IMG/VR virus record: IMGVR_UViG_3300028607_003036
Span: 4,039 to 68,038 of that record
Reading direction: 5' to 3' (one strand)
Length of the DNA stretch: 64,000 nt
DNA from: a virus
The notes beneath the pieces are model-generated. The model saw only the letters and a program-made list of their open reading frames with translations, did no database searches and was not told the origin of the DNA. Shown one piece after another: positions 3,631 through 64,000 of this stretch. Position numbers and translations under genes: made by a program. The first letter of the stretch is position 1, and every line of letters begins with the position of its first letter.

Positions 3631-5268
3631 CTATCTGTTCCAAATTTTTGTAATAATAAATCCCCCCTTCTTACTAATCTGCACTTTCATTGTAACTACA
3701 GTATTTTCTTGTAATTCTAACTTATATTCTTCTAGTTGTGATGAAAAAATTACAAGTCCATCTAATGTGCAAGTTTTATCCGAAACTGTCACAAAAGCCA
3801 TTTTTGAACCTTTGTTTTTTCCATTTTTAATAATATAATCATTGATAGTTTGTATTTCTACACCAAGAATAATGTATTTAGATTGACATCCATCTAGTAA
3901 TTCCTTACATGTGTGTGTGACTCCTATAACATTATGTGTGTCTAATCTATCATAGGTGAGTGGTATACCTAATAAGTGATGTTCTTTATTAATAATCCAG
4001 TCTGGATCATCTTTTGTTGAACTTTCAGGATTTTTTAGTGATTGTACTTGACTTTTCACTATTTCAGAACGATTTTTATTATGTGTTCCACCGCCATTCT
4101 TTTTAGTAGGTAACAATTTTTCTAAAATATCAATAAATGACCCAATATCGAAATTTTCTTGAACCCATTCCTGCTCCTTTTTAGATAAGGATTTCCATAT
4201 TTTATATTCTGTCAACATTTGTGTTCTTGTTTTTTCAAAATAATCTAATGATCCTGATGAGATTAAAGCTTCTATTACTCTTGAACTCACTACATTAGAA
4301 TCATAAATTATAAATGATTCCCAATGAAAAAGCGAGTACTCGCATGTTTCTTGTATGGGATTACGTTGTAAACTTAGGGGAAGAGAAGAGATTGATAGGG
4401 CCATAGAATTAAAATATACTTCAGGCGATATCAATTTTTTAATAGATGATTCACCAACCCCTTTGATATGTGACAAGCCGTATGAAATTGTATTATCATG
4501 AATTTTAAAGTCAATATTTCCTTTAAGTAAATTTGGAGAATTAACTCTTATTCCTAAAAATTTAGCATCTTCAATTAATTCTCTAATTTCAGTATATTTA
4601 TCTTGCTTATTTTTTGCTCCGTTCAACCAAGAAACAAAGAACTCTATTTTTGAATGCGACTTAATATAAGCACACCAATAAGATTCTAATGCATAAGCTA
4701 TTGCGTGCGATTTATTAAAAGAGTAGCGTTGAGATTTTTCTATCCAATCAAAAAGTTCTTCTCCTTTCTCTTTTGATATTTTCCCAGATTTTTCACATCC
4801 ACTTATAAATTCTTCACGCAATACTGTCATATCCTTTGCTATCTTTTTACCAATTGCTTTTCTAAGTTTATCCGCTTGTTGAGCTGTGAAGTCAGCAATT
4901 TCCATAACAATTCTAATCGCCTGTTCTTGATAAGTGAGGATTCCATAAGTTTTCCTTAAAATAGAGTCTACTATAGGATGATATTCTGGTATTTCTTCTA
5001 GTCCATTTTTTCTATCTGAGAAATGGTGGGTTAAACTTTTTCCTTCCAGCTTAGATTTTAGAGTTCCTGGTCTAATTACACTTATGACGGCAGCAAGTTC
5101 TTCAATGGATCTTGGTTTAATATTTCGACACCACGTTTTACCTAAATTTGTCTCAAGTTGAAAAACTCCTTTCGTATATCCGCTACATAATAAATCCCAA
5201 ACTTTAGGACAATCAAGTGGAACCTTGGTTATATCTAATTTTGTTACATTGCAATAATCACAATTCAT
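3631..5268 (-). CDS. dnaE: DNA polymerase III alpha subunit, C-terminal half (fingers, HhH, OB fold)
   Basis: GVFQLE, IRPG, TYGILTYQEQ, LRKAIGKK, YSFNKSHAIAY, GLSHIKGVG, MAFVTVSD. Confidence 0.95.
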   Translation of the reverse strand: MNCDYCNVTKLDITKVPLDCPKVWDLLCSGYTKGVFQLETNLGKTWCRNIKPRSIEELAAVISVIRPGTLKSKLEGKSLTHHFSDRKNGLEEIPEYHPIVDSILRKTYGILTYQEQAIRIVMEIADFTAQQADKLRKAIGKKIAKDMTVLREEFISGCEKSGKISKEKGEELFDWIEKSQRYSFNKSHAIAYALESYWCAYIKSHSKIEFFVSWLNGAKNKQDKYTEIRELIEDAKFLGIRVNSPNLLKGNIDFKIHDNTISYGLSHIKGVGESSIKKLISPEVYFNSMALSISSLPLSLQRNPIQETCEYSLFHWESFIIYDSNVVSSRVIEALISSGSLDYFEKTRTQMLTEYKIWKSLSKKEQEWVQENFDIGSFIDILEKLLPTKKNGGGTHNKNRSEIVKSQVQSLKNPESSTKDDPDWIINKEHHLLGIPLTYDRLDTHNVIGVTHTCKELLDGCQSKYIILGVEIQTINDYIIKNGKNKGSKMAFVTVSDKTCTLDGLVIFSSQLEEYKLELQENTVVTMKVQISKKGGFIITKIWNR

Positions 5269-5740
5269 CTATCCAATCCTTATAAGCCGACCAAACTTTG
5301 GTATCATTTAATATTTCAGAACCCGTTTTGACGATTAGATCGTTGGGATAATGTAAGCGTCTATCTAAAAGATTTATAGCATTGTTTATTCCATTATATT
5401 TACATGCAATTAAAAATCCCATAGCTGATGACCGAGATACACCAGCCTGACAGCAAGAAACAAGTTCGTCCTTGTTTTCAGCCCAATCTAATGCGCTTTC
5501 TACATGAACTCTTGTTGGAAAAATTAAAGGTTTGCTAATGTGTCTAGATAAATAATCAAGTCTTCTTTTATAATTGTCTTTTATTCCATAGATATCATCA
5601 AACATCATATGAAAAATATTTGATTTATTAATATCTATAAAACGATCAGCATCATCTTCCCCTAAAAGAAGAGTTGGTAAATTAAGATTATTAAAATGTA
5701 ATATGTATGTAGCACGACTACATATATGTATAGTTTTCAT
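5258..5740 (-). CDS. Protein-tyrosine/dual-specificity phosphatase-like protein
   Basis: CX5R P-loop CQAGVSRSS; upstream FDDI general-acid loop. Confidence 0.8.
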   Translation of the reverse strand: MKTIHICSRATYILHFNNLNLPTLLLGEDDADRFIDINKSNIFHMMFDDIYGIKDNYKRRLDYLSRHISKPLIFPTRVHVESALDWAENKDELVSCCQAGVSRSSAMGFLIACKYNGINNAINLLDRRLHYPNDLIVKTGSEILNDTKVWSAYKDWIDEL

Positions 5741-6369
5741 TTATTTTTACCAAATTTTACATTAGCTGCACATCTCCTTGTTAACTTCATAAACTTTATA
5801 AATATCTCAGCAGTAACTTTTACATCATCAAGTGCCGAGTGATCTTTTCTCTTTTCCATTTCAAGTAATTCTATCATACTATCTAGTTTTAGATTTTTAA
5901 TAACTCCGGTGTCATAACACCAATGAAATATTAGAATCATAGTATCTAAATATTCGGGAATAAAAGAAAATAAAGATTGTCTATCATATTTTTTGTCCCA
6001 GGGACCGTATTTTTTACACAATATATTAAGAAATTTCAAGTCAAAAGCGACATTATGACCCATTATTATGGGAGCGGTCCAAGTAGTTCCTTTAGAATTA
6101 TATTTATTTACATAGGATACAAAACTTTCCCATGCAACCTTGGGATGGATTTTATCTTCTAAAGATTTTAATGTGATACCATGAACAGCTTCAGCTCCTT
6201 TTGACCAATTTGCTGGTTTTTGTGGTTTGATATAAACGTCAAAAGTATCATCTTTTATTTCCAGGGTTCGTGGATCTATTACACAGGCGGAAAGTTGAAT
6301 AATCTCATTATCTTTAATTGACAAGCCAGTAGTTTCTGTGTCTACACAAATTATATATTTATTATTCAT
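5737..6369 (-). CDS. dnaQ: DEDDh 3'-5' exonuclease (DnaQ/epsilon-like)
   Basis: VDTETTGL, GHNVAFDLKFL, HSALDDV. Confidence 0.92.
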   Translation of the reverse strand: MNNKYIICVDTETTGLSIKDNEIIQLSACVIDPRTLEIKDDTFDVYIKPQKPANWSKGAEAVHGITLKSLEDKIHPKVAWESFVSYVNKYNSKGTTWTAPIIMGHNVAFDLKFLNILCKKYGPWDKKYDRQSLFSFIPEYLDTMILIFHWCYDTGVIKNLKLDSMIELLEMEKRKDHSALDDVKVTAEIFIKFMKLTRRCAANVKFGKNK

Positions 6370-6914: not shown

Positions 6915-7116
6915 TGTCTACGACTACTAAATATGGATGTTCTACGAAAATTTCTACTTCTGGATTTATAACGAATATTACAACTTCTGCAAGTTCTCCA
7001 GCTTTTATATTCCATTCAACTTTTGAAATTCCTTCTATTAGTTCTCCAGTCTCTGCATTTACTATCTTTGTTCCTTCAGGACGCATTGATCCATCACTAA
7101 TAAGTTTAAGTTTCAT
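6904..7116 (-). CDS. Hypothetical protein
   Basis: 70-aa ORF overlapping the dnaE-N stop. Confidence 0.7.
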   Translation of the reverse strand: MKLKLISDGSMRPEGTKIVNAETGELIEGISKVEWNIKAGELAEVVIFVINPEVEIFVEHPYLVVVDNEN

Positions 7117-8872
7117 TAATTAGCTCTTGTGCATTTTTTAGTTTGTCTAGCGTATTTAGCCCAAGACAATCAAATTTAACTAATCCTACATCTTCACATT
7201 CGTTCATCTCAAATGATGTAATCATTTCATCACTTGATTTATCCTTAATCATTGGACAGATATCAGTAATTGGTTCGCTTGATACTATAACGCCGGCAGG
7301 ATGCTTTGACGAAGATTTGTATACTCCTTCTAGACGGTAAGCCTGTTCAAATCTTTTAGAATATTCTCCCTGATATTTACCATTCTCATCAAGATAACAC
7401 CACTCTTTTAAGTCGTTGCCTCTATGTTCAAGTGCCCACTGAATAATACTGGACTTTTTCCCATCTTGTCTCATAACTTCTAGCTCATCAGAAATGGAAG
7501 ATTCTTGTGGTAAGAATGATGTAATTTTGTTCATCTCGGCAAATCCACATGTATTATGTGCACGCAACACTTCTTTTAATGCTCCCCGTCCCATGAGACG
7601 ACCAAATGTGACCATCTGAGCTACATGATCGTGACCATATTTATCTCTTATATAAGTAATAGTTTTTTCCCGTTTGTCAACCTCAAAATCTATGTCAATA
7701 TCGGGAAGTGCCACCCTATCCTCTGTATTTCGCCCAGCATTATAAAATCTTTCAAAAATTAATCCATATTTTATTGGGTCAACATCCGTTATCTCTATTA
7801 AGTAGGCTACTAGACTTCCACCGACAGAACCTCTCGCTGTTCCCACTAATCCGTGTTTTTTAGCATCAATTACATAATCTTGAACAATAAGAAAATAACT
7901 AGCAAGATTAGCTCCCTCAATAATATTAAGTTCTTTTTTAACTCTATCGGCATATTCTATATTAGTGTTATCAATACCTTTTTCTTTCCAGCCATTTCTA
8001 CATAATTGTCGCAGATACTCATTGTCTGATTGATTATTAGGACACTTAAACTTAGGAAGCATAGGTCTATTTAGAATATCATACTCTTCACACATATCCG
8101 CAACAATTTGTGTATTATTAATCTCTTCATGAGTAAATCCCATGTTTTCTATTTCGTCCTGCGAATGCAGGTAATAATTTTTAGATGCGAAAAATCCTAT
8201 ATTTTCCATCTCTGACAATTTTTTACCTGCACTAAGTGCCAGTAATAGTCTATGATCATCAACATCTGTTCCGGGTGAGCAATAGTGAGGATTCGTAGTG
8301 GCTACACATTTTAAATCAAAAATCTCAGCCAGCTTTTTCATCATGTTTGATGCATATAGTTGTGCCGGCGTTTCTTCTATATCGTGTAGTTGGACTTCTA
8401 AGAAAACGTTCTCCTTACCAAATCTTTTGATGTATCCTTCAATATTTGTTGCAATATGTTCATCTGCATCTATATCAATATATTCTTTTATAGCATCTGC
8501 GTCTTTAAGATTATAGGCAATGGTTGGATTCGTAAACATCAAATCCGTAGTATGACAACCAATTCTACCTACAATACATATTAAGTTTTGTCCTAGTGGT
8601 TCTTCTAATCCTGATACAACTTTAATAAGTTTTTTCCAGCCATTTTTGTTTTTAGCAATTAGGACAAAGTCTTTAAACTTGGAACCGAGTAGGGGTTTAA
8701 TATTGGCTGCTTTCGCTGCCTTGAAAAACGGAACGGCTCCCGATATAGAAGTATCATCGGTTAAGGCTATTGAAGTATATCCTAATTCCTCAGCTCTTTC
8801 AACTATTTGTTTTGGTGTATTTAGACCCCGTAAAATACTGTAATGTGAATGAGAACATAGTAGATTAAACAT
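7106..8872 (-). CDS. dnaE: DNA polymerase III alpha subunit, N-terminal half (PHP and palm)
   Basis: HSHYSIL PHP motif, GTARGSVGGSLVAY, LPDIDIDF and KFDCLGL carry all three catalytic Asp; likely start MFNLL at 8872. Confidence 0.95.
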   Translation of the reverse strand: MFNLLCSHSHYSILRGLNTPKQIVERAEELGYTSIALTDDTSISGAVPFFKAAKAANIKPLLGSKFKDFVLIAKNKNGWKKLIKVVSGLEEPLGQNLICIVGRIGCHTTDLMFTNPTIAYNLKDADAIKEYIDIDADEHIATNIEGYIKRFGKENVFLEVQLHDIEETPAQLYASNMMKKLAEIFDLKCVATTNPHYCSPGTDVDDHRLLLALSAGKKLSEMENIGFFASKNYYLHSQDEIENMGFTHEEINNTQIVADMCEEYDILNRPMLPKFKCPNNQSDNEYLRQLCRNGWKEKGIDNTNIEYADRVKKELNIIEGANLASYFLIVQDYVIDAKKHGLVGTARGSVGGSLVAYLIEITDVDPIKYGLIFERFYNAGRNTEDRVALPDIDIDFEVDKREKTITYIRDKYGHDHVAQMVTFGRLMGRGALKEVLRAHNTCGFAEMNKITSFLPQESSISDELEVMRQDGKKSSIIQWALEHRGNDLKEWCYLDENGKYQGEYSKRFEQAYRLEGVYKSSSKHPAGVIVSSEPITDICPMIKDKSSDEMITSFEMNECEDVGLVKFDCLGLNTLDKLKNAQELINET

Positions 8873-9431
8873 TTTTACTTCTATCTTTTTGTAGGTATCT
8901 TTTAGCATTTTTAACAAAAGTCGCATCTTCTATGAAACCTAATCCTACATTACATCTATGACATAGCAATCCTCTCATATGACCTTTTTCATGACAATGG
9001 TCAACACGCCAATTCTCATGTTCAAATTCAATTTTACAAATATCACATGAATTATATTGGATAATAAGATATTTTTGTATAATTTGTCGTGCTAAAAATA
9101 CTTGATCCTTTGTCGTTAGTTGTTTATCTAGGTTGAAATAGCTATGTTTTATGTGTATATAAATTTTACAGTTTTTACACCGACCTTCCCTTCCATCTTT
9201 GTGCTCTTTGTGTATCACGAATTCCTTTATATCTTTTATTTTATTACAATACATACATTCTTTTGACCCCTCCATTTTTGGAGGATATTTTGGTGCTATA
9301 TTTCTAGCATATTCTTTCGCACAATTTTTACACGAATATTGAAATCCTGCACCTTTTTTATAAAAATATTCCGATGTTAAAAGAAATTCTTTTTTACACC
9401 CATAACATTTTCTAGTTTCCACTACTACCAA
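8865..9431 (-). CDS. Endonuclease VII-type HNH, probably a free-standing homing endonuclease
   Basis: CxxC repeats followed by CDIC...VDHCHEKGHMRGLLCHRCNVGLG. Confidence 0.9.
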   Translation of the reverse strand: MVVVETRKCYGCKKEFLLTSEYFYKKGAGFQYSCKNCAKEYARNIAPKYPPKMEGSKECMYCNKIKDIKEFVIHKEHKDGREGRCKNCKIYIHIKHSYFNLDKQLTTKDQVFLARQIIQKYLIIQYNSCDICKIEFEHENWRVDHCHEKGHMRGLLCHRCNVGLGFIEDATFVKNAKRYLQKDRSKNV

Positions 9432-31030: not shown

Positions 31031-31048
31031 TATGTTCTCAGTTAAAAG

Positions 31049-31122
31049 TGGCAGATGCAGGAATCGAACCTACTTCAACTCTAGCTTATGAAGCCTGAGA
31101 GATAACCAACCTTCCACCTGCG
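31049..31122 (-). tRNA. tRNA with CAT anticodon (Met, initiator-like), CCA not encoded
   Basis: CGCAGGT/ATCTGCC acceptor stem with a 1:72 mismatch, TTCATAA loop, GTAGG-TTCGATT-CCTGC T arm. Confidence 0.85.

Positions 31123-49201: not shown

Positions 49202-49202
<1 letters not shown>
48735..49202 (-). CDS. Protein with twin-arginine-like N-terminus (MIRRGFLASLSLIPF)
   Basis: RRxFL motif. Confidence 0.7.
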
Positions 49203-51179
<1,977 letters not shown>

Positions 51180-51186
<7 letters not shown>

Positions 51187-51467
51187 TATTCTCCCGTAAT
51201 AGTAGTTCCATTTGATTTAACAGCAAGGTAGTGATTTCTATCTACAAATATTTTAGACTCATTTATAGGAATGTCAAATATTATAGCGTCGTCTATCCCA
51301 TCTGCTAATCCAAAATCTTTTCCGTAATAGTTTAATGAAACCTCTGAGAATCTTTTAATATCATCTACATAAATTATTTCTATTTGCCACTCCATATGTT
51401 CAATGATATCTAGAAAGATAACAAATTTTGATTTATTATAAGTTTTACCATTTGTTTTATAGCTCAT
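51180..51467 (-). CDS. Hypothetical protein
   Basis: 95-aa ORF. Confidence 0.6.
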
Positions 51468-52105
51468 ATTTTTTTAAGGAATCTGGCCGGATTCCCCACC
51501 CAAATTTCGTTATCTGGTACATCATGTAAAACGACACTGCCGGCACCTACTATTGAATTTTCTCCTATTGTAACGCCGGGAATTACTGTTGCTCCAGCAC
51601 ATATCCAGGCATTTTCTTTAACAGTAACACATCCACATAGTGTAGCATTTGGAGCGATTTCTACACCATCTTCTAATATACACTCGTGATCTATAGAACA
51701 ACACTGATTTAGTATGACCCAGTTACCTATCTTAACTTTGGTTCCTATTGTTACACGGGGTGATATTTGTAATCCTTTTCCAAGTTTTAGATCATAGTTA
51801 GTAACGGTACTTTTATGTGCAAGAAGATGTGGTTTTAATCCCCATTTTTCTAGTCTTTCTGATATTAGTCTGCGTTCTTTTGCATATGGATTTCCAATAG
51901 TTACACAGAAATAATCAACCCCATCTTTATCTAGTCGTTTTTGTAATCCACAACATTTATCACTAAATACTTCTTGCCCCTCGTATTCTCTTTTATATCT
52001 ATCTATCATATGAGATATGGTTAAATCATAATTGTAGAGAGCTATAGGTTTCATTATTTCAAACTGACCACCTATCCCGTAAAATACAATATATTTCATA
52101 ACCAA
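51464..52105 (-). CDS. NeuD/PglD/PerB-family sugar acetyltransferase
   Basis: TIGNP..K..I, hexapeptide repeats, SIDHEC, VGNPAR. Confidence 0.92.
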   Translation of the reverse strand: MVMKYIVFYGIGGQFEIMKPIALYNYDLTISHMIDRYKREYEGQEVFSDKCCGLQKRLDKDGVDYFCVTIGNPYAKERRLISERLEKWGLKPHLLAHKSTVTNYDLKLGKGLQISPRVTIGTKVKIGNWVILNQCCSIDHECILEDGVEIAPNATLCGCVTVKENAWICAGATVIPGVTIGENSIVGAGSVVLHDVPDNEIWVGNPARFLKKI

Positions 52106-52133
52106 TCTACTGTGTCTGACATTGGTATTAACA

Positions 52134-53102
52134 TCATAGATTAATATTTCTTAAAGCTTTTAGGGTTTCTTCTATACATTCATATACTGAGCCTTGGGGA
52201 AGAAGTCTTTTATGATATATACGTGGATCATAATAATCCTTTGCACCAAAGTTGGGAAATGCAAATAGTTTTCTCATTTTTGAGCTGGAAACTTTGTAAT
52301 TATATTGATTTATTAATGGAGAATCAACCCACTCTATATCAAAGTATTTTTGTACAGATAACATTGATAAAATCCGCTTAAGAGTATAATTTTTTGTTAA
52401 AATATTTAAAGTTTCATTTTTATATTTACTATATGTGGCACATATATGAACAACTTCTAAACAATCAGTCAAACAAAGATAAGGTCTATAAAAATTGAGA
52501 GCTTCGGTCCAGACTGGAAGTGGCTTTCGCATTATTGAATTAAAACAAAATTTGTTGACGGCTGTCTGATTTCTCCACCCCGGCGACCACCCACAAATAG
52601 TTCCAAATCTAAGTATCATATAATCCATATCTCTTTGAATATCTTTTCTTAAATATTTTTCAACTTCAAACTTACCGTCAGCATAGGGTGATTGAGGATT
52701 AATTGTTCCTTCGTCAAATTCTTTAATTGGAGTATCATCTTGAGATAAACCATAAATACTTGTGCTTGAGGGGAAGATAAATTTTTGAACCTTTGCTAAT
52801 GTACACTTATCTATAAAATCAATAGTATCATCAACATTAACCTGTTTTACCAAAACTTCGTTATCAAATGATTTAGACGCATCTACAATAGCTGCTAGAT
52901 GAATAACTGTATCGAATTGTCTCAAAAAATCTATAGATAGATCTTGAAAGGATGACTCTACAAAATTTATACTGCGTGGCAGATTAAATAAAGAACAATA
53001 TCTTTGAGTATGAAAATTATCAACGGCGGTTATATCTGTTTTCCAATTATGGAGAAGATAGCTACCAATGTAGCCTGCGGCTCCAGTTAAAAGAGTTCTC
53101 AT
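52134..53102 (-). CDS. NAD-dependent epimerase/dehydratase (extended SDR)
   Basis: TGAAGYIG, HLAA, PSSTSIYG, YADGK, LRFGT. Confidence 0.93.
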   Translation of the reverse strand: MRTLLTGAAGYIGSYLLHNWKTDITAVDNFHTQRYCSLFNLPRSINFVESSFQDLSIDFLRQFDTVIHLAAIVDASKSFDNEVLVKQVNVDDTIDFIDKCTLAKVQKFIFPSSTSIYGLSQDDTPIKEFDEGTINPQSPYADGKFEVEKYLRKDIQRDMDYMILRFGTICGWSPGWRNQTAVNKFCFNSIMRKPLPVWTEALNFYRPYLCLTDCLEVVHICATYSKYKNETLNILTKNYTLKRILSMLSVQKYFDIEWVDSPLINQYNYKVSSSKMRKLFAFPNFGAKDYYDPRIYHKRLLPQGSVYECIEETLKALRNINL

Positions 53103-53545
53103 TTTAATTCCTCAATAATATATAAAAGGTATTCTTGCCAGCTATTAATATAATCTTCTTTACTATACTTTCGATCCCAAAATACTAACAAAGACGTATC
53201 TCTTGTATAATATATCTCCTCACTCCAAACCATATATGGAACTAAAATAGAATCTCCCGGTTTTAATATATATTTAGTAAATTTTTCATATAAATCTCTA
53301 CATGTTACTTGAATAGTTCCATTTAAACATATCATTAATTGAGAAGTATTAAGATGAGCGTGTTTTCCCCGTATTTCTCCGGGATCTACTCTTACTACTG
53401 AAAAACAATGTATAGGTTTAAATGGCATAGTGGAAAAATCATAAGCAGTTAATGTTCCTCCACCACTTGAAAATCCAGGAAAACCACTTAATTGTACATC
53501 ATTTATAGTGGGATATTGTTTTTGTTTTTTCATAAATCTTTTCAT
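53099..53545 (-). CDS. FdtA/QdtA/WxcM-like sugar 3,4-ketoisomerase (cupin)
   Basis: RGKHAH...Q..ICLNG, YMVWSEE, DYI. Confidence 0.88.
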   Translation of the reverse strand: MKRFMKKQKQYPTINDVQLSGFPGFSSGGGTLTAYDFSTMPFKPIHCFSVVRVDPGEIRGKHAHLNTSQLMICLNGTIQVTCRDLYEKFTKYILKPGDSILVPYMVWSEEIYYTRDTSLLVFWDRKYSKEDYINSWQEYLLYIIEELK

Positions 53546-53572
53546 TGTTTTTTTTTGGATATTGATCTATAT

Positions 53573-54028
53573 TTATCTATTTTCTAGACTCCAATTTTCA
53601 CCAAAGCTTCCAACAGGAAGTTTAAAATCATCATTTGGTGTCCACTTTTTATCTAACCAATAAAGCAAAATAGCTTCCTCGCTGCCAATATTCATATAAC
53701 CATGGTAAGAATGGTATGGTAGTTCAAGAACTTGTGGGTTTTTATCTGATAGATAATGAAATTTCATTTCATATAAATCTGAACACCAACCTCCTATACT
53801 TTTTGATATTACTTCTTTACATGCAAAAATTGTACTTTCTGGATGTATGGACTCAGCAATTCCAACTTTTAACTGTCCCTTAATTAAAAACCAATAATCT
53901 AAATATTCATGAGCGTGCCATGCAGAAATAGATCCATTAGCAGGAATGTAGGACACATTAACTTGTCCATGATCCATAGGAAATATATCCATGAGAGATT
54001 GTTTTCTATCATCTTGAAAAAATTTCAT
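53573..54028 (-). CDS. RmlC-like cupin (sugar epimerase-like)
   Basis: DDR, AWHAH, GQLKVG, YHGYMN. Confidence 0.75.
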   Translation of the reverse strand: MKFFQDDRKQSLMDIFPMDHGQVNVSYIPANGSISAWHAHEYLDYWFLIKGQLKVGIAESIHPESTIFACKEVISKSIGGWCSDLYEMKFHYLSDKNPQVLELPYHSYHGYMNIGSEEAILLYWLDKKWTPNDDFKLPVGSFGENWSLENR

Positions 54029-54035
54029 AGTTTCG

Positions 54036-54122
54036 CTACTTCAGCCATTTAATACAGGCGGCAACTCCAAGGGTAACTGCGAAAACGATTAAACATATCA
54101 TACCTATTGCTAAAAAATCCAT
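54036..54122 (-). CDS. 28-aa membrane peptide
   Basis: MDFLAIGMICLIVFAVTLGVAACIKWLK; the ATG abuts the upstream stop. Confidence 0.5.
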   Translation of the reverse strand: MDFLAIGMICLIVFAVTLGVAACIKWLK

Positions 54123-54829
54123 TATAATACCTCGTTCTTATCTACAGAATATTTAATAATACTAGGATCTAACACAAATCTCGAAATAATACCGTCCCAA
54201 TCATATCCAAATAATTGACATTCTCTATCACAACATAGAGAGACAAGCTGTTTCGTATTATAGTTATAGAATGATTTATAATCTGTTTTATTAGTAGAAG
54301 CGTTAATTTTTTCTTTTTTCCCAACTTTAATATCAATACTATCACAAAGATTGTATAACTCTTCACTTAGATTCTCGGTACGAAGTATAAAATCTGGTAC
54401 ACAATCTCCTTTCACATTGAATAGATTATAGTATAAGAAGTTTTTTTGATAATATTGGAAGCTGTCATTATTAAACCGCTGAGAATAGAAATTTTTAACA
54501 AATTGAGGAAATGTTTCTCCATATACATTCTCATGTTCTTTTGGTCCGGACATAATCCAGCGGAATGCTACAAGTTTTCCACGTGCAGGATTAGATTGGT
54601 GTTTCTTGGTCCACCAACTTACCAACAAATCATAGGGGTTTCTTATCGTCGTAAAACAAACGGCTTTCCCTTGATCTTTTTCTCTATAAAATTGCTCATA
54701 TAACTTAATACGATCTTCTAGTTTTTCACTTTCATCAAAATAAAAAAATCTGTGGCCTTTTTCGTGTTCAAGAACCTTTTTACAATATGTACTGCCGGTT
54801 CTTGGTATGGCTAGATAATAGAGATTCAT
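54122..54829 (-). CDS. Sulfotransferase family 2 (carbohydrate sulfotransferase-like)
   Basis: 5'-PSB IPRTGST, 3'-PB RNPYDLLVSW, DFILRTENL, INAS...DYKSFY. Confidence 0.88.
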   Translation of the reverse strand: MNLYYLAIPRTGSTYCKKVLEHEKGHRFFYFDESEKLEDRIKLYEQFYREKDQGKAVCFTTIRNPYDLLVSWWTKKHQSNPARGKLVAFRWIMSGPKEHENVYGETFPQFVKNFYSQRFNNDSFQYYQKNFLYYNLFNVKGDCVPDFILRTENLSEELYNLCDSIDIKVGKKEKINASTNKTDYKSFYNYNTKQLVSLCCDRECQLFGYDWDGIISRFVLDPSIIKYSVDKNEVL

Positions 54830-55039
54830 TTAATCTTCTCCAAACACTCTGTCCTGACATTTCTGACACATCTTAGATATATTCCATTCCTTGCGAGAGA
54901 TTTTATTTCTAAATCCATCTTCAGATTGTTTTTTTCCACATTGAGAGCAGTGATTTTGATGATTATCATAACCATGTGGAGCTATCTTGTTTAGAAATGC
55001 TTCCATTTCAGGTGATTTCATTTTTAACCTCATGTACAT
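54830..55039 (-). CDS. Small Zn-binding phage protein
   Basis: CSQC...FRNKISRKEW.IS.MCQKCQD. Confidence 0.75.
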   Translation of the reverse strand: MYMRLKMKSPEMEAFLNKIAPHGYDNHQNHCSQCGKKQSEDGFRNKISRKEWNISKMCQKCQDRVFGED

Positions 55040-56264
55040 AGGGCTGTGTGGTTATCCAAGTTCCCTTAAAATTATTGTGTTTCTTAAGGATCTCATCCTG
55101 ATAGTTAGGAGCGGCAAGATAAATAACATCTGCTACTTCATTTAAATCTTCTGGTTCCTTTACGATGGGAATATGTGTTAGTGAAGTAAATTTACCAATT
55201 TTTTCTAAAGTTGTATCTGTAATACATTCAATCAGATCTCGTGAATAATTCATATCCATTTTTGTTTTATCAGCATCTTCATGACCGTTTATTACATAAT
55301 TTAAATATGAATAGATAGTACTAGATTTACTTGTTGCACCAAAAGCCATTTTTCTTTTACCAAAATTATTTTCTAAATATTCATAGAATTTTTCTATATT
55401 CCCTCTTACCTGTTCAGCAAATCTAAAATATGTTTCCAGTTCTTGTAATTTTGCGGTACTTTCTTCATATCCGAGCAATCCATTCATATCATCATCATAA
55501 GGAATATTAAAATTTCCTTTTTCAAAGAAGTATCGTTGAGAACCCATATGAATATCTGGTAATTCCTGTATCTTTACTAATCTTAACCCATGGTTATATG
55601 AGATTTTCTCTAATGCTATTCCTGAAAATATATAATGATGTTCATCATAAAATTGAGAATATGCACAACTCTTGATTGTATGTGATAATGATGGATCTTC
55701 AGTAATTAAAACTCCGCCATCTTTTAATGCTATGAAACACGCTTCAAAGAATTCATCTATATCTGAAACATGACACGCACAATTAGTCGCATAAATTAAA
55801 TCAAATTGACCACACTCTTCTTTTACTATCTTTGCATTTGATATATTCCAGAAAAATGGATAACACCTGTATCCTTCATTGTTTAGCTGATCGCAAAAGT
55901 TTTCACATGGTTCTACAGAAACTGCCTGATTTGTTAGAAAATTCTTTAGGAAAGTTCCATCGTTGCTACCAATTTCTAGTATTTTTTCACATTCAAAATT
56001 CTGTTTGATATAATCGGCAGCACTTTTAAAATGTCGTCTCATTGTTTGAGAACCACCAGTACGGTACGGGTAGTCTTTATTAAACATTAGCTTTGCATCA
56101 GGTTGCTCAACTAGTGAGACTAAGTAGTTCTCGGTATTAAATTGAACTTTAAGAGGAAAAGAATATTCAGTTGCTTTACCACTTTCGTAGGAGTCTTTCT
56201 CTTCTTTTGTAATGAACTTGTTTGAAAGGGGTTGAATTCCTAGGTCCAAAAATGTATGTTTCAT
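55008..56264 (-). CDS. NDP-sugar C-methyltransferase family
   Basis: LG.QPLSN, EIGSNDGTFL, NCACH, YDEH..IFS, FGATSK. Confidence 0.9.
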   Translation of the reverse strand: MKHTFLDLGIQPLSNKFITKEEKDSYESGKATEYSFPLKVQFNTENYLVSLVEQPDAKLMFNKDYPYRTGGSQTMRRHFKSAADYIKQNFECEKILEIGSNDGTFLKNFLTNQAVSVEPCENFCDQLNNEGYRCYPFFWNISNAKIVKEECGQFDLIYATNCACHVSDIDEFFEACFIALKDGGVLITEDPSLSHTIKSCAYSQFYDEHHYIFSGIALEKISYNHGLRLVKIQELPDIHMGSQRYFFEKGNFNIPYDDDMNGLLGYEESTAKLQELETYFRFAEQVRGNIEKFYEYLENNFGKRKMAFGATSKSSTIYSYLNYVINGHEDADKTKMDMNYSRDLIECITDTTLEKIGKFTSLTHIPIVKEPEDLNEVADVIYLAAPNYQDEILKKHNNFKGTWITTQPYVHEVKNEIT

Positions 56265-56265
56265 T

Positions 56266-56577
56266 TTATTTTTCCTTCAAGTTATGACTTTGTAATTCTT
56301 GATGTTGTTTATATGCATGATCAAACATTTCTTTATAAGCCCTGTTTAATAATTTTAGTTCCCTCTTTTGGTTTCTGACCTTATGTTCTAAATGTCCAAT
56401 ATACTCTATACGATTTATATTTGGTTCATTCGTAGTTGCCAGTAACATTTCTACTAACACTTCTTTGTTTTTATATTTTTGGCACAGCCTATCATATTCA
56501 TAGTTGACACGATCATTCCAGCACAGCTTTTGGTTGTGATTCCATCTTAGATATTTTCCTATTAACCATTTAATCAT
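56266..56577 (-). CDS. Hypothetical protein
   Basis: 103-aa ORF. Confidence 0.6.
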   Translation of the reverse strand: MIKWLIGKYLRWNHNQKLCWNDRVNYEYDRLCQKYKNKEVLVEMLLATTNEPNINRIEYIGHLEHKVRNQKRELKLLNRAYKEMFDHAYKQHQELQSHNLKEK

Positions 56578-56619
56578 TGTTTGTTTGTAGTTTGTGATAA
56601 TAATTTATCTTTTTTAGGA

Positions 56620-57453
56620 TTAAATAATTTTGAAGTCATGTAAATGTTCATCCTCTTTAAAAATAAATGGAAGCTGTTCACCGAATTTATTCTTGTTATA
56701 AAACGATTCTGTAAAATGCATGCCTTCTTTTCCAATATATATAGCACGATTCATACAGAAACGATAGCGTTTCATGTCATTTTGAGCTATTGCCCATTCT
56801 TTTCCACAATCTTGCCCTGTGACGTTAGACTTCCAATGACCCATTTTTTTAAAGAACTCAGAAATTTTAGCATGTGGTCGCTGTCTATATTCTACGTTAC
56901 GCACAAGATCATAATATTGATCAAATAGAGGGCGTATTCTTACGTGGTTGGATGATATGAATATCTCTGCAAAATGATGGTGATTATCGGATACTAAAGT
57001 GTCTAATTCTCTTGATTCATTATCCATCTTTCGGAAACCGGGGCTGAATGAGAAAATCGTTTCCTCATGCTCATCAAGATAGGGGATTAGTTCTAGTGCC
57101 AGCTTAAACCAGTGTGGACTTAATACTACATCATCTTCTAATAACATTACATAATCATAGTGGTTAGTGAGATAACAGAGTCCTTCATATTGATTAACTG
57201 CAAGACCTACATTATCTTTATCTCTTGAGTGAACTTCTTTATTTGGAATAGAAGATTCTTCAAATATTAGTGTGCAATTTATACAATCCATTGGTTTTGC
57301 TACAAGAACTCCAAGAGTTTTAGACATGTGACCATCTTGGAAGAGATGAAATTCAAAGTTATCAAGGTGTGAAGCACTTTCTATTGATTTAATCTGTTGT
57401 TTTAAATAGTTTGGTCTGTTGAAACTAAATATTCCTACTCCAATTTTTACCAT
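56620..57453 (-). CDS. GT-A glycosyltransferase (GT2-like)
   Basis: FSFNRPNYL, FQDG, MLLEDDVV. Confidence 0.85.
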   Translation of the reverse strand: MVKIGVGIFSFNRPNYLKQQIKSIESASHLDNFEFHLFQDGHMSKTLGVLVAKPMDCINCTLIFEESSIPNKEVHSRDKDNVGLAVNQYEGLCYLTNHYDYVMLLEDDVVLSPHWFKLALELIPYLDEHEETIFSFSPGFRKMDNESRELDTLVSDNHHHFAEIFISSNHVRIRPLFDQYYDLVRNVEYRQRPHAKISEFFKKMGHWKSNVTGQDCGKEWAIAQNDMKRYRFCMNRAIYIGKEGMHFTESFYNKNKFGEQLPFIFKEDEHLHDFKII

Positions 57454-59392: not shown

Positions 59393-59535
59393 TTACACCT
59401 TATTTAATCTAGAGTATTCACCAAATATTTCAGTGGCTTTATTGTTGTAAACTATTGCTGCTTCTTTTGGATCTTTAAAATATTCTAGATAGTAGTTTTG
59501 TTCTTTGGTTCTTAATTCTGCTGTATATCCTCTAA
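59393..59535 (-). pseudogene. AP2-domain remnant of an HNH-AP2 endonuclease
   Basis: Frame without a start codon: RGYTAELRTKEQNYYLEYFKDPKEAAIVYNNKATEIFGEYSRLNKV*. Confidence 0.75.
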
Positions 59536-60156
59536 TTTCTCCATATGTATAGAAGGAGCGATTGGTCCTAAATCATAACCATCTTCACTAAGAGAAAAAC
59601 TTCCAAACCCTTTACCTTCTTGACCATTTTTACCAGTTGATTCATTTCCGTCACCACTTCCGTTACCTCTACCGAAACCATTTCCATTACCTTTTCCGTT
59701 TCCTTGACCTTTTTTAGATCCCTTTTTACCCTTTTTAGTTCCCACTACAATTTCGCCATTCTTTAATCTTTTAATTATATCTTCCATTAACTCATGTAGC
59801 TTTCTTTCATATGGAACTTTATATGTTCGTGGCTCATTGCTTTCGTAATCAAGAATACCAGATTTTGATTTAACTAGTGGTGTAACCCATAAAAATATAG
59901 CTCCGGGATTACCAATCTGTTTATTTTCCTCGTGTACGATAACCCAGTGAATTAAGAATTTATCTGGTAGTGATTGTTCTGTAGCAAATCCCTTGTATGA
60001 ATCTATTGAGTGCCATACGATAAATCCAATCCAAGTAGAAAATGCTATAGTTAGGATTTTTAAAGTCCAGTGACCCTTGCCTCCGATAATAAAATATAGT
60101 AGTAAAACTACTAAACATGTTATTACAAAGGGAATACTTAAAGATGTTAATTCCAT
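59512..60156 (-). CDS. Membrane protein (2 TM, exported domain, Gly/Lys-rich tail), partner of the ExbBD-like pair
   Basis: Hydrophobic N-terminus; GKKGKKGSKKGQGNGKGNG tract. Confidence 0.75.
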   Translation of the reverse strand: MELTSLSIPFVITCLVVLLLYFIIGGKGHWTLKILTIAFSTWIGFIVWHSIDSYKGFATEQSLPDKFLIHWVIVHEENKQIGNPGAIFLWVTPLVKSKSGILDYESNEPRTYKVPYERKLHELMEDIIKRLKNGEIVVGTKKGKKGSKKGQGNGKGNGNGFGRGNGSGDGNESTGKNGQEGKGFGSFSLSEDGYDLGPIAPSIHMEKLEDIQQN

Positions 60157-60800
60157 TAATGAAACTCCCTTGGAGTAGATCCAGGTCTTTGTGTAGCTAA
60201 TAATTTTTGCAATTCGTTAATTCCGTGTACTTTGCCTTCCATATCCACCGAAAATCTAAAAGCAGTTTGTTCTTCTCCGTGATGAGTAAACTTCATCTTC
60301 TTAATATGTACCAAGCTATAACTATTCATCTTTTCAAGTTTTATAATTACTTCTAGCGGCTTTGTTTCTCTCCATGTCCAAGCATGAGCATTAATTGTAA
60401 ATTCAGTAGGCAGAATGCCACGTATATATACGTGTTCTACATTTTTTGTAATTGTGAATATTTCACCCTGTTCTGTCGTGAATGTATCAGAATATTTGCC
60501 AGTATCATCCTGTTCTAGGTGTAGAAATCCTTGTTCTCTTCTTCTAAATCCAACTAAATTACCATATCCATCCTCAACCCATAGATCCATATCAGTTTCA
60601 CTATCGTCATACCAACTCATGGTAATGATAAATTCAGCTTTACTTTCTGTGTTTTGTGACTTCTTATCTTCAACTGTGATAAGTAGAAAAGATAAGATGA
60701 ATAGTACCATTAATCCTAGTACTAGACTAAATAACATATCCAAAAAAGATGTATCAGCACTATATTTATTTTGCATTTTTTTATCTAATGAAATATCCAT
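60156..60800 (-). CDS. ExbD/MotB-like single-TM protein with a YfaP/DUF2135-like exported domain
   Basis: FLDMLF at the TM start (conserved Asp); DMDLWV...G...HLEQDD...E. Confidence 0.65.
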   Translation of the reverse strand: MDISLDKKMQNKYSADTSFLDMLFSLVLGLMVLFILSFLLITVEDKKSQNTESKAEFIITMSWYDDSETDMDLWVEDGYGNLVGFRRREQGFLHLEQDDTGKYSDTFTTEQGEIFTITKNVEHVYIRGILPTEFTINAHAWTWRETKPLEVIIKLEKMNSYSLVHIKKMKFTHHGEEQTAFRFSVDMEGKVHGINELQKLLATQRPGSTPREFH

Positions 60801-60879
60801 ATATTAGAAAAAATATAATTTCAATCCAAGCCGCCATCTCAGAATCAATCAGAAAACTTAGAAGTGAATCTATTTTCAT
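60781..60879 (-). CDS. 32-aa membrane peptide between the motA-like and exbD-like genes
   Basis: MKIDSLLSFLIDSEMAAWIEIIFFLIYGYFIR; ATGA overlap with the motA-like stop. Confidence 0.45.
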   Translation of the reverse strand: MKIDSLLSFLIDSEMAAWIEIIFFLIYGYFIR

Positions 60880-61382
60880 TTTTTATTCTTTTCTAAGAAA
60901 TTATTTCTAATGAATCGAACCTCATTTTCCAACATAAAATATTCTAAACGAAGTAATAAAGAACAAATAATTCCTGTGATGGTAGTGATTAAGGCGGTTG
61001 ATATACCACCGGCAATTTGTTGAATTAGCATTTTCATCTCTAGTGGATTAGATACATCCATGTTTTCAAAGCCACTGAAACTTAACATTAATCCTATCAC
61101 GGTTCCTAACAATCCTAGGCTGATAACTTGAGCAGATACAAACCATCCCCATTCGCATAATCGTTCAGCACGATTACATGAGTACTCTGTATGATCTATT
61201 GCCCAGCATTTAAATCCACACCATATTGACATAAAATAGAACAATAACATTATTATGTAACTAATATGTGTTGAATCCCCTTCCCATATCGCTCCGTATA
61301 TCCCTAGTCTATAGAGAACTAGTGAAGATACAGAAATTAATGATATCAGAAGGAACCAGTAGAGAAATATTTTATGTTTCAT
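60876..61382 (-). CDS. MotA/TolQ/ExbB proton-channel family
   Basis: LGLLGTVIGL...F and GISTALITTITG helices. Confidence 0.9.
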   Translation of the reverse strand: MKHKIFLYWFLLISLISVSSLVLYRLGIYGAIWEGDSTHISYIIMLLFYFMSIWCGFKCWAIDHTEYSCNRAERLCEWGWFVSAQVISLGLLGTVIGLMLSFSGFENMDVSNPLEMKMLIQQIAGGISTALITTITGIICSLLLRLEYFMLENEVRFIRNNFLEKNKK

Positions 61383-61420
61383 TTTATTTTACCAGATATG
61401 TTATATATTATAGTTGATCA

Positions 61421-62335
61421 TTAATTTCCATAACTTTCCTTCATTTCTAAAATCATATCTTCTATTTCTAGATAATCTGCTTTTCGTAATTCTGGAAATG
61501 GTTTCTTATTACCTATTTCGAATCCTAAAGCTTTAATTGCATATCTTAAAGATATGTGCCATCCATATTTAGACATTACATCAAAAAATTTATCTTCAAG
61601 TTTTAACATCATATCAGGATGGTCGCTAGGTTTAGAAGAAAAAATTTGTTCTCCATTATAAATACATTCATATAAAGCGTTTTCTAATTTAGGAAATACA
61701 CTACCCAATCCAGAAAGATACGTATTTGCCCCGGCGTTTATACATAAAGAGAATCGTCTACCAGAACCACCAGCAACACAGATAGTAAAGTTATCATTAG
61801 CTAATCGAGATACCTGATAAGCTGTTTCATAGTGAAGTGACTCTTCTTTTAATCCCGTAATGTTAGGGTGCTCGCTCAACTTTTGAATAACATCTAGAGG
61901 ATAGTCTACCCATTTTAGTCCGTATCCAGAACGTAGTGGTTGTGCGTGTATCCATATTGGACATGGTGAATCATCGGCAACTTCAAAGAAGAAATCAATA
62001 ATAGTTTGTTCATCGTAAAGTCTATCTGGATAAAGAATTAAAGCAATATCATCATTTTTTACAGATCCTTTTATACATCTTAATAGACGTTTTGTTTCCG
62101 TTAAAGGCGCCGGAGATATACCTGATATTAGCTGTTTATCAAAATAATCATAACACCGCCAGTTAAAATTTATAATTTCGGCATTTGATAATAAATTATA
62201 CTGACTTGTTCCAGCCGTAGTCATTATTGTTTCAACGCCTTCACTACTAAGATATTTAAGATATCTTCCTAGTTCTTTATTGTTTAGACTTTCGTCTTCG
62301 TTATAGAACGGTGGTATGGGGACTATAGGACTCAT
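61421..62335 (-). CDS. DapA/NanA-family class I aldolase
   Basis: PIPPF, TAGTSQYNLLS..E, ITGLKEE Schiff-base Lys. Confidence 0.85.
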   Translation of the reverse strand: MSPIVPIPPFYNEDESLNNKELGRYLKYLSSEGVETIMTTAGTSQYNLLSNAEIINFNWRCYDYFDKQLISGISPAPLTETKRLLRCIKGSVKNDDIALILYPDRLYDEQTIIDFFFEVADDSPCPIWIHAQPLRSGYGLKWVDYPLDVIQKLSEHPNITGLKEESLHYETAYQVSRLANDNFTICVAGGSGRRFSLCINAGANTYLSGLGSVFPKLENALYECIYNGEQIFSSKPSDHPDMMLKLEDKFFDVMSKYGWHISLRYAIKALGFEIGNKKPFPELRKADYLEIEDMILEMKESYGN

Positions 62336-62349
62336 GAGATGAAAACCTT

Positions 62350-62394
62350 TTAATTGGGAAAATTAAGATAAGCAAATTTACTAAATAATTCTTT
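62350..62394 (-). pseudogene. Second AP2-domain tail remnant
   Basis: KELFSKFAYLNFPN* in an intergenic gap, with stop codons upstream. Confidence 0.55.
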
Positions 62395-62400
62395 TTAACA

Positions 62401-62598
62401 TTATTCATAATACTCCACTTCTATAGTAGCTCCGATTCTATCAACCGTAGACATAAATACGGATGTTCTAAATCTCATATTTTGGGGTTTTAAATCCTTG
62501 TATGCTATGCATGCTTTTGACGCAATTTTTTTGAGAATACTATCTAAAGTTTCTCCTGCGTCTATGTTTACCGAAGCTAATAATCGTCTCTTAACCAT
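62401..62598 (-). CDS. Hypothetical protein
   Basis: 65-aa ORF. Confidence 0.55.
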   Translation of the reverse strand: MVKRRLLASVNIDAGETLDSILKKIASKACIAYKDLKPQNMRFRTSVFMSTVDRIGATIEVEYYE

Positions 62599-62640
62599 TT
62601 ATAAATCTTATGGGAACCCATTCATTCATAGTATATTTGT

Positions 62641-63111
62641 TTATTTTTCCATCTCATGTTTATTCTCCCAGGGAAACGGAGTGTTTGGTTGCTCACATCC
62701 TAAAAAACTGCATAGAGTAGGCCAACTATGGAAATCTGAACATATATTCATTATTAGAAGACTATCACTTCTTTGAAAGAAGTATTGACTAACTTCACTT
62801 TCATATTTATGAATATTAAAATTTTCATTTGGACAAAATTTTTTTAACGACTTATTCCAGTTTTCTTTATCTCTTGTCGTAATAATAAATTTACTATTTG
62901 GATATGTGTAATCTAATCTCTTGTAGAAAAAAGATAAGATAGAACTAACTATTCCATCATATTTTTCTATATCATTACAAATACTACTCCAGGTATAATT
63001 TCCGCTTTGAATTGAACAATGATGAAATGTTTTATATCCTAAAATGTTTAGGGCGGAAGATAGTGAGGTAGTTCCCGTCCTTGAATATCCTATGCCGAAA
63101 ATTTTATTCAT
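62641..63111 (-). CDS. Sulfotransferase family 4-like
   Basis: KIFGIGYSRTGTTSL..AL..LGY, IITTRD..W..S, WPTLCSFLG...P..PFP..N. Confidence 0.88.
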   Translation of the reverse strand: MNKIFGIGYSRTGTTSLSSALNILGYKTFHHCSIQSGNYTWSSICNDIEKYDGIVSSILSFFYKRLDYTYPNSKFIITTRDKENWNKSLKKFCPNENFNIHKYESEVSQYFFQRSDSLLIMNICSDFHSWPTLCSFLGCEQPNTPFPWENKHEMEK

Positions 63112-63114
63112 TAA

Positions 63115-63546
63115 TTATTCTTCTGTTATAGGTTTAGAAATAAGTTTATAAAACTCATTTACACTCATATATCCAGGACTAGGAGAGATTTTAACTACCT
63201 TTTTTGAATAGGGATTAATCCACGAATAATCAGGAATGCCACGTTTCGGATATTTATCTCCGTGCGGTTTTACTCTAACAAAAATATAGTGCTTTTTTAG
63301 AAAAGATCGTATCTTTATATTGGGTAACACGTTCCTTTCCATCATTACACATGGTTTACAGTAACTTGGGTCGGTCCACATGACAAGAACATACTTTTTT
63401 TGTTTTTGTCCAGCTTGAATGCCAAGTTCAATGTTTGAAAATTCCCACTTTGGTTCAGCGGTTTGCTCATAGGATACTGGTATTCTTGTTTTAGAATTAC
63501 ATCCTATAAAAAATAGGCTGAGTAGAATGAGTAATATGCGAAACAC
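63115..63546 (-). CDS. Thioredoxin-fold lipoprotein
   Basis: Lipobox-like FIGC; YCKPC. Confidence 0.8.
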   Translation of the reverse strand: MFRILLILLSLFFIGCNSKTRIPVSYEQTAEPKWEFSNIELGIQAGQKQKKYVLVMWTDPSYCKPCVMMERNVLPNIKIRSFLKKHYIFVRVKPHGDKYPKRGIPDYSWINPYSKKVVKISPSPGYMSVNEFYKLISKPITEE

Positions 63547-63577
63547 TTTTCACCCCTAAAATAATTGCTTCTATTAC

Positions 63578-63605
63578 ATTATAGCTATATATGTTGACTT
63601 GTCAA
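63578..63605 (-). promoter_or_regulatory. Sigma-70 promoter TTGACA-N16-TATAAT with an inverted repeat over the -35
   Basis: TTGACA AGTCAACATATATAGC TATAAT; GTTGAC-AA-GTCAAC. Confidence 0.85.
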
Positions 63606-63608
63606 CTT

Positions 63609-64000
63609 TTAGAAAGAAATTTCTTCTTCATCATCTAACCACAGATTTATTATAGGCTTACCTATTTTTTTTGCGTATTGAATACAGGAAAAGGTTCCTC
63701 CAGATTGAAGTTCTGGATTCCAAATTGCAAGCAGGGTATCACATGTATTACACATTTCTTCATTTCTTAAAAACATTTTCTTAGGTGAAAATCCCCCATC
63801 CGAAACAACTTTTGTAAATCTACATTGACGTAAAATTTTATGGTATCTTTCTTGTGAATGTGACGGCCATTTCTTTTCTGAACCTGCAAAAGGTAGGTAT
63901 GCGTGTAAATCAATACCGAGAGATAGTGTAGCTTCTGCTAGCCAAAAGTCGTAACCTATAGACATGCCGGTAATAACATAATCTATATCTTTTTTATTTT
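63609..64000 (-). CDS. SLOG/YspA (DUF1273)-like protein, 5' end outside the window
   Basis: The frame extends upstream of the track start: DIDYVITGMSIGYDFW...RNEEM...LLAIW...GGT..C..YA. Confidence 0.85.
   Translation of the reverse strand, partial: NKKDIDYVITGMSIGYDFWLAEATLSLGIDLHAYLPFAGSEKKWPSHSQERYHKILRQCRFTKVVSDGGFSPKKMFLRNEEMCNTCDTLLAIWNPELQSGGTFSCIQYAKKIGKPIINLWLDDEEEISF

Follow-up and report, generated by a model that had tools for sequence, protein, structure and literature searches.

Ion-driven motors of the 5:2 type power flagella, gliding, nutrient import, outer-membrane upkeep and Zorya defense. The solved Ton and Tol complexes are built from a pentamer and a dimer, with a third helix at the periphery (PMC12215075), and a survey of MotAB relatives grouped the non-flagellar members as 'generic ion transporters' and mentioned unknown appendages (PMC12505986). 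We analyzed a 64,000-nucleotide (nt) window of the 77.5-kb virus record IMGVR_UViG_3300028607_003036 (hereafter, the window; coordinates refer to it unless another locus is named) and describe a cassette of three adjacent genes of this marine phage, A, B and C, that encode a miniature MotA/TolQ/ExbB-family protein, a single-pass protein with an aspartate in its membrane helix, and a two-helix membrane protein, respectively. The trio is a real, conserved and apparently undescribed variant of the MotA/ExbB kind of motor: the MotAB diversity survey (PMC12505986) does not mention its partner type, and our literature search returned no description of the trio or its function and no paper joining bacteriophage, MotA TolQ ExbB and auxiliary. 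The original prediction for this region, which reported a phage-encoded set of four open reading frames (ORFs), was correct in this respect. All four lie on the minus strand, and the phage origin of the contig is confirmed by both the virus record and the phage replication genes in the window (a split DnaE-type polymerase, DnaB helicase, primase, a UvsX-like recombinase and ribonucleotide reductase).

Hidden Markov models (HMMs) of A, B and C were run over 98 fetched loci, which were picked by peptide patterns and comprise viral loci and 58 loci from bacterial genomes. Of the 26 IMG/VR loci nearly all had the trio, as did most of the 58 bacterial ones. Among 29 non-identical viral loci, A occurs in 29, B in 29 and C in 28, and any other gene cluster in five or fewer. 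The A-B-C order is kept in nearly all of the 93 loci that possess both A and B, usually with 4-nt stop/start overlaps, and C follows B immediately in 28 of the 29 viral loci and in most bacterial loci. This arrangement is far beyond chance. The viral neighbors of the trio, by comparison, differ from genome to genome and include a sigma factor, the split polymerase, a GT1 glycosyltransferase, an epimerase, and terminase and capsid genes; Pfam assignments for 139 flanking viral genes gave sigma-70 (6), GT1 (5), epimerase/GDP-mannose dehydratase (3), cell-wall hydrolase (2) and Clp protease (2) as the recurrent families. Since the neighbors vary from locus to locus, the cassette is autonomous. 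Four loci (L079, L082, L088 and L089), which form an alphaproteobacterial B clade of their own, have nothing beside B that matches the A and C profiles; either their partners are very divergent or B may stand alone there.

Judged by its sequence, A is a true member of the MotA/TolQ/ExbB family. The Pfam model PF01618 (MotA_ExbB) matches its residues 88-156, the C-terminal helix pair, with 45.8 bits (cut-off 22.9, E 6.3e-12), and a profile of 36 relatives compared with solved structures retrieved TolQ best (E 4e-5) and MotA next (2e-3), followed by ExbB, PomA and ZorA. Residues D36, G90, G93, G97, T134 and G137 are invariant in the 36 relatives, and T94 (in GLLGTV) and T133 are at least 90% conserved; the GLLGTV segment and the threonine pair T133/T134 align with the GTV (GTVWG) and ATA (ATAIGL) motifs of TolQ, while D36 sits in the first outer loop. 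The compact MotA/TolQ/ExbB protein with conserved threonine helices that the original prediction had proposed is thereby recovered. None of the NCBIfam equivalog cut-offs for TolQ and ExbB (TIGR02796, TIGR02797 and TIGR02805) was reached by A, which scored 31 bits versus 221 for TolQ, 16.1 versus 206 for ExbB and 17.7 versus 135 for exbB2; its scores with the NCBIfam MotA and ZorA models also lie far under their cut-offs. Therefore, A is a family member that belongs to none of the named systems. Four helices are predicted from the sequence and its charge pattern, with a cytoplasmic loop of ∼17 residues and a cytoplasmic tail of ∼22 residues; these parts are so small that nothing in them could engage a cytoplasmic rotor. 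Phage A proteins mostly have 146-177 amino acids (aa) and bacterial ones about 170-270 aa, the extra length of the latter being a larger cytoplasmic loop.

The B protein has a single predicted helix at residues 16-47, in which the aspartate D21 (FLDMLF) lies five residues from the N-terminal, presumably cytoplasmic end. This residue does not vary in 11 close homologs and is conserved to at least 90% among 80 representatives, in agreement with the single-pass, aspartate-bearing partner described earlier. Further residues invariant in the 80 representatives are W63, D70, D72, D98, G101 and E122, and D99 and D105 are nearly so. The real start of B is probably M9 at 60776 rather than 60800, because the relative with 85% identity (locus L010) starts there, 4-6 nt past the stop of the small upstream ORF in both genomes. 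Close homologs of B in marine metagenomes number 18, and an exhaustive profile search delineated a family of 2046 clusters (50% identity) at E<=1e-3 and 543 clusters at E<=1e-30. The partners had been called novel; they are indeed unclassified, but the trio to which they belong is widespread.

An AlphaFold2 model of B built from 80 sequences (predicted local distance difference test, pLDDT, 89.7) has an all-beta sandwich at residues 55-195 after the helix. With this model, Foldseek retrieved DUF2135 proteins at the top of the AlphaFold DB clusters (E 4.7e-10) and TerD homologs at the top of the PDB matches (E 1.5e-4 to 4e-3); a search of the ESM Atlas concurs on DUF2135, and an independent structural aligner placed TerD first with Z 10.4 (133 residues, root-mean-square deviation 3.9) and Z 9.7 (137 residues), the next row having 6.3. 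Hence, as modeled, the exported domain is a TerD/DUF2135-like beta-sandwich, the likeness being one of fold only. HMM scans of B gave no match to DUF2135 (PF09906), to ExbD (PF02472, none even at E 10) or to OmpA, and a value of about E 1e-3 was attained by two of the 80 relatives for each of PPC, ExbD and DUF2135 (E 2e-3 for the last). DUF2135 is the family of E. coli YfaP, and the YfaP-like exported domain of the original prediction accordingly stands at the level of fold, the protein of the window having no HMM match to it; its further statement that the partner carries neither an OmpA nor an ExbD domain agrees with both. The B profile compared with solved structures yielded nothing beyond weak PPC-domain-like motif matches, PADLOC and NCBIfam returned nothing for B, and Pfam detected no added domain in the longer relatives of 257-327 aa. 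The acidic residues D70, D72, D98 and E122, together with D99 and D105, probably fit Ca2+ sites of the TerD type, and B would then bind Ca2+.

In the alignment of C proteins, two N-terminal helices separated by a basic loop are followed by a GWP...LP.KF segment, a small domain, a Gly-rich stretch that is long in phages and short in bacteria, and a conserved Pro-rich peptide ending in EK at or near the C terminus. The third membrane protein with a Gly/Lys-rich tail is thus seen as it was first described. Residues K33, G56, P64, E76, W90, P109, R110, Y116 and K207 are invariant. The small domain, at residues 66-141, is modeled as beta-beta-beta-alpha-beta with a pLDDT of 82-89, and residues 144-186, the Gly-rich arm, are disordered. 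Because the loop between the helices is basic, the positive-inside rule suggests that the soluble part of C faces the periplasm. No meaningful family assignment for C was obtained in Pfam, PHROG, NCBIfam or PADLOC, and its best 120 homologs are all unnamed and have zero Pfam domains. A Foldseek search of the PDB gave no match at E<=1e-3, the AlphaFold DB clusters contained uncharacterized relatives only, and VIA-align wide found no clear match among solved folds, in a list that is dominated by the helix hairpin and barely probes the small domain. The C protein in the window extends 7 residues past the ...PEK terminus of its closest relatives.

Among described systems, TolQ-TolR-TolA and ExbB-ExbD-TonB resemble the trio most closely in anatomy: three inner-membrane proteins from presumably co-transcribed genes, a PF01618 protein whose best solved match is TolQ, a single-pass partner that has an exported domain and whose helix bears an aspartate close to its inner end, a flexible arm on the third, likewise anchored protein, and no cytoplasmic torque interface. 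They differ in that A has four helices and 168 aa, whereas TolQ and ExbB have three helices and about 230-245 aa; in that the head of B is a TerD/DUF2135-like beta-sandwich and not the alpha/beta domain of ExbD and TolR; and in that no outer-membrane partner of the trio is known. Moreover, C has two helices and a Gly-rich arm, in contrast to the single anchor and the Pro-rich or helical arm of TonB and TolA. MotAB and PomAB share with the trio the four helices of the channel protein, the conserved last helix pair and a partner with an aspartate, but the trio lacks a cytoplasmic torque-generating domain, an OmpA-like peptidoglycan-binding domain in B and flagellar genes. Zorya ZorAB likewise combines a MotA-family channel with an aspartate-bearing partner in a phage-related setting. 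Unlike ZorA, however, A has no cytoplasmic tail of several hundred residues, and the module is on the phage side; no match of B to ZorB, no PADLOC match for B or C, and no ZorC, ZorD or ZorE gene was found. As to the exported domain, TerD (PDB 2kxt, 2qz7) has the same fold, and B has invariant acidic residues as the Ca2+ sites of TerD would need, but TerD proteins are soluble and cytoplasmic. DUF2135 is usually terminal in large VIT/VWA or TPR proteins, unlike in B. To our knowledge, neither TerD nor DUF2135 is known as a partner of a MotA-family channel, and no paper mentioning DUF2135 was returned by the literature search.

We favor, with some reserve, the reading that the trio forms a proton-driven motor of the 5:2 type that has a periplasmic output and works like Ton and Tol, because the conserved positions of A and B are those that define proton-coupled members and because the gene order and coupling match those of Ton and Tol. 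Five copies of the miniature A would surround the membrane helices of two copies of B, and proton flow via the aspartate of B and the threonines of A would produce relative movement. With so little of A in the cytoplasm, the motor would have to do its work in the periplasm, where the TerD/DUF2135-like and probably Ca2+-binding head of B would act together with C. The latter, with its hairpin, small domain, flexible Gly-rich arm and conserved C-terminal peptide, would be the analog of TonB or TolA. For the phage, the most likely benefit would be that an envelope process of its Gram-negative marine host can be driven or kept up while the infection lasts. More tentatively, and as a possibility about which we are evenly divided at best, the trio may represent an undescribed class of Ton/Tol-like envelope motor, built of a MotA-type channel, a TerD-like aspartate partner and a Gly-armed transducer, which many unrelated phages carry in a miniaturized form as the energy source for some envelope process that they need while infecting, and to which optional small membrane peptides are added at the A/B junction. 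If so, a further motor class with a different periplasmic head and third subunit would widen the known uses of such motors; this class counts thousands of sequence clusters, in phages and bacteria alike. It would also be unexpected for a phage to bring its own proton-powered envelope machine, which raises the question of which envelope step needs energy.

Several observations weigh against a Ton/Tol-like motor. All matches of the A profile to solved family members are confined to the last helix pair, and a small A-like protein could be a passive channel. Alignment of B by hhalign with an ExbD/TolR profile, built from five trio-bearing bacterial genomes, gave a probability of 1.6% over 18 columns, in which the aspartates of the two families are in register without statistical support. 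A PF02472 search of the same five genomes detected 4-10 ExbD genes in each, and the B gene of the trio was never among them. By these sequence comparisons, homology between B and ExbD/TolR is not statistically supported, and B is not assignable to that family, although the anatomy is alike. The defining features of TonB and TolA were not recognized in C, where neither an SHLS-type motif nor a TonB_C or TolA domain was detected (no match in Pfam), and its overall model, with a helix hairpin at residues 3-54, is of moderate quality (pLDDT 66.9). One may suppose that the trio is not a motor at all and that it forms a passive ion-conducting or Ca2+-handling complex or a scaffold whose likeness to MotA and ExbB is structural only. 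The minimal size of A and the likeness of the head of B to the Ca2+-binding TerD fold would suit such a complex, and the 5:2 stoichiometry and the proton coupling are what we infer; however, the most conserved positions of A and B, namely the aspartate of B and the Thr/Gly motifs of A, are those defining the proton-coupled members, and we regard this explanation as improbable.

The distribution and phylogeny of B separate the phage cassettes from the bacterial ones. Large chromosomal contigs that encode a B homolog come from Ideonella, Rubrivivax, Sphaerotilus, Limnobacter, Noviherbaspirillum, Thiodiazotropha, Xanthobacteraceae and Devosia, and in an even sample of 401 Pseudomonadota genomes B was detected at E<=1e-10 in 13 (about 3%). 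The flanks of the bacterial loci are mutually unrelated and include genes for a pyrroloquinoline quinone-type ABC transporter (read from ORFs), wax-ester synthase and cytochrome c. Right after C, 37 of the 58 bacterial loci (each from a beta- or gammaproteobacterium) have a gene for a lipoprotein-like protein of ∼240 aa (e.g. L043 7111-7893, L044 7131-7862 and L064 7112-7822) with a weak DUF3108-like match only. This gene was not found in the viral or alphaproteobacterial trio loci, and the bacterial system may have its outer partner in this protein. Of the 84 B proteins placed in a maximum-likelihood tree, 55 bacterial ones group in a single clade (support 100/98) that branches by taxonomy. 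The viral sequences, which are more diverse, fall outside this clade; the B protein of the window belongs to a viral clade of 19 rows (95/82). The tree is unrooted, its loci were picked by peptide patterns, and the claim is limited to the sampled bacteria: because phage and bacterial B proteins form separate lineages, the phage copy, so far as this tree indicates, is not a recent capture from them. It probably belongs to an old, miniaturized phage lineage of the cassette. The only row labeled bacterial in the phage part of the tree, L046, is a 3.2-kb contig that was binned as a Nanoarchaeia metagenome-assembled genome and pairs with a viral sequence (97/95); it is probably a mis-binned phage fragment.

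Isolated phages that possess B are Rhizobium phages only, in 26 records, where the protein is always annotated as hypothetical and has 23-35% identity. Small A-like and C-like genes adjoin B in the temperate Rhizobium phage 16-3 (genes p039-p042), in RHph_N3_19 (EVB99_065-067) and in others. These trios differ from that of the window in a still smaller A (96-113 aa), in soil Alphaproteobacteria as hosts, in a trypsin-like periplasmic protease encoded nearby, and in a position among nuclease and replication-type genes. A nucleotide search against isolated phages gave no match. Phage 16-3 and its relatives, as well as cultured Ideonella, Sphaerotilus and Noviherbaspirillum, offer tractable systems.

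In the window, the trio is flanked by a dihydrodipicolinate synthase (DHDPS)/NanA-like aldolase on one side and by 3-deoxy-D-manno-octulosonate (KDO)-8-P synthase on the other, inside a sugar-modification island with glycosyltransferases. The side of the KDO-8-P synthase also has a PhyH dioxygenase, a GT2 glycosyltransferase and a C-methyltransferase, and further out there are two sulfotransferases of different families, an FdtA isomerase, an epimerase, a hexapeptide acyltransferase, a DegT aminotransferase and a CmcI methyltransferase. Such a setting would fit a cassette that energizes the export or surface assembly of the glycan of the island (lipopolysaccharide, capsule or KDO-containing material), as Tol-Pal and Ton do for processes at the outer membrane. 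A GT1 or GT9 glycosyltransferase or an epimerase lies directly beside the trio in several marine relatives as well, and group-1 glycosyltransferases and epimerases/dehydratases recur among the 139 viral neighbors counted above. However, a glycan gene adjoins the trio in a minority of loci only, most viral and examined bacterial loci being without one, and no neighbor family exceeds five of the 29 viral loci. The bacterial flanks (wax-ester synthase, cytochrome c and ABC transporter genes) and the nuclease and replication-type genes of the Rhizobium phages point elsewhere, and sugar islands are large in the variable regions of these phages, so that proximity may mirror the accumulation of accessory genes. 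Export of the glycan is therefore an unlikely function of the cassette.

The same variable regions could harbor a conflict device, which would either exclude superinfecting phages or colicins by disturbing the Ton and Tol systems of the host, or act as a decoy or poison for motors of the Zorya type. Ton and Tol are entry routes of phages and colicins (PMC10424213, PMC7391070), and the ZorA models of PADLOC match A weakly (E 9e-8 to 1e-6) over 60-100 residues of the shared helix pair. These matches are no better than those to TolQ and MotA and cover the common channel helices only, while the long tail of ZorA is missing in A. The cassette also supplies B and C, partners for which a poison subunit has no use. 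In bacteria, the chromosomal copies fall into a clade that follows taxonomy and occur in ordinary gene contexts, which argues against a purely phage-conflict role, and the beta- and gammaproteobacterial copies have a lipoprotein partner of their own. We give this explanation little credence. In sum, superinfection exclusion, interference with host TonB/Tol or Zorya systems and glycan export, the functions considered in the original prediction, found no support in loci whose neighbors vary and whose chromosomal copies track taxonomy. A role in cell-wall remodeling or lysis, in which the cassette would position or time a muralytic or proteolytic activity in the periplasm, is similarly doubtful: it could draw on an ESM Atlas neighbor of C (a viral cluster of 297-aa proteins, all with a Phage_lysozyme domain; template modeling score 0.50), on the two cell-wall hydrolases among the 139 viral neighbors and on the protease of phages 16-3 and RHph_N3_19, but the Atlas match is at threshold and structural only, the best 120 homologs of C have no Pfam domain, no lysis gene was identified beside the trio in the window, and a lysis device would hardly be expected on bacterial chromosomes.

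Between A and B, the window contains a hydrophobic ORF of 32 aa that is coupled to both genes, as originally proposed: it begins with an ATG that shares the ATGA sequence with the stop of A, and it ends 4 nt ahead of the probable B start. The relative L010 has a hydrophobic ORF of 31 aa in the same place, the sequence of which is not conserved; the junction DNA of the two genomes is barely alignable, though the proteins on either side share 81-85% identity. In 10 of the 93 loci that possess both genes, A and B are more than 45 nt apart, and about 83 of the 93 have no such ORF. Unrelated hydrophobic ORFs of 59 aa (L024 5832-6011) and 68 aa (L034 3490-3696) fill the junction in other phages, so the gap has been filled by an unrelated hydrophobic ORF in three independent viral lineages (31-32, 59 and 68 aa); two bacterial loci have the gap but no hydrophobic ORF. 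From these comparisons, the A/B junction appears to be a recurrent, optional accessory slot, and the predicted peptide is not a core component. An origin of the small ORF as a frameshift product of A or B was considered and rejected, as both proteins align end to end with their relatives. The metagenome contigs covering 59400-61500 are either identical to the window or span fragments of it only and have no variation that bears on the small ORF; no RNA data set was among the sequencing runs with this region.

The window is AT-rich (32% GC), and its minus strand carries nearly all genes. The features of the cassette, the surrounding island and other genes of the window are listed in the table. 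PHROGs has no family for any of the four ORFs, and in a scan around the trio, promoter-like sites were scarcer than in shuffled sequence and the minus strand had no terminator.

Table. Location of the cassette and of other features in the window
Feature	Position	Strand	Basis
A subunit, miniature MotA/TolQ/ExbB-family protein, 168 aa	60876-61382	-	PF01618 match
Small hydrophobic ORF, 32 aa, translationally coupled between A and B	60781-60879	-	ORF list
B subunit, single-pass, membrane Asp, 214 aa ORF	60156-60800, probable start 60776	-	Conservation, model
C subunit, two-helix membrane protein, Gly/Lys-rich tail, 214 aa	59512-60156	-	Alignment, model
Sugar-modification island around the trio	49202-57453 and 61421-63111	-	Family scans
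DnaE-type polymerase, finger/HhH part	3631-5268	-	
ORFs between the two DnaE parts	5258-5740 and 5737-6369		
DnaE-type polymerase, PHP+NTPase part	7106-8926	-	
787-aa protein with CEMIP-type beta-helix	23455-25818	-	
tRNA-Met (one)	31048-31122	-	
59-codon open frame without start codon	59396-59572	-	
Thioredoxin-like protein with lipoprotein-like N terminus; YpsA/SLOG-family protein	63115-63965	-	

The same split of the DnaE-type polymerase is seen in relatives (e.g. L001 2988-7323), where an RNase T-like gene and a 48-aa ORF lie between the two parts; the layout is thus conserved in this phage group. The protein with the CEMIP-type beta-helix is a possible fiber or depolymerase. The 59-codon frame, which lacks a start codon, overlaps the C gene at its 3' end and stops shortly before the KDO-8-P synthase gene; a Pfam scan of it gave no match, and its end looks, by eye, like the AP2-type DNA-binding domain of homing endonucleases. 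Finally, several studies of 2018-2024 yielded seawater, marine and marine-sediment metagenomes with near-identical copies of the 59400-61500 region; although the present record may derive from some of these data, the phage has thus been sampled repeatedly.

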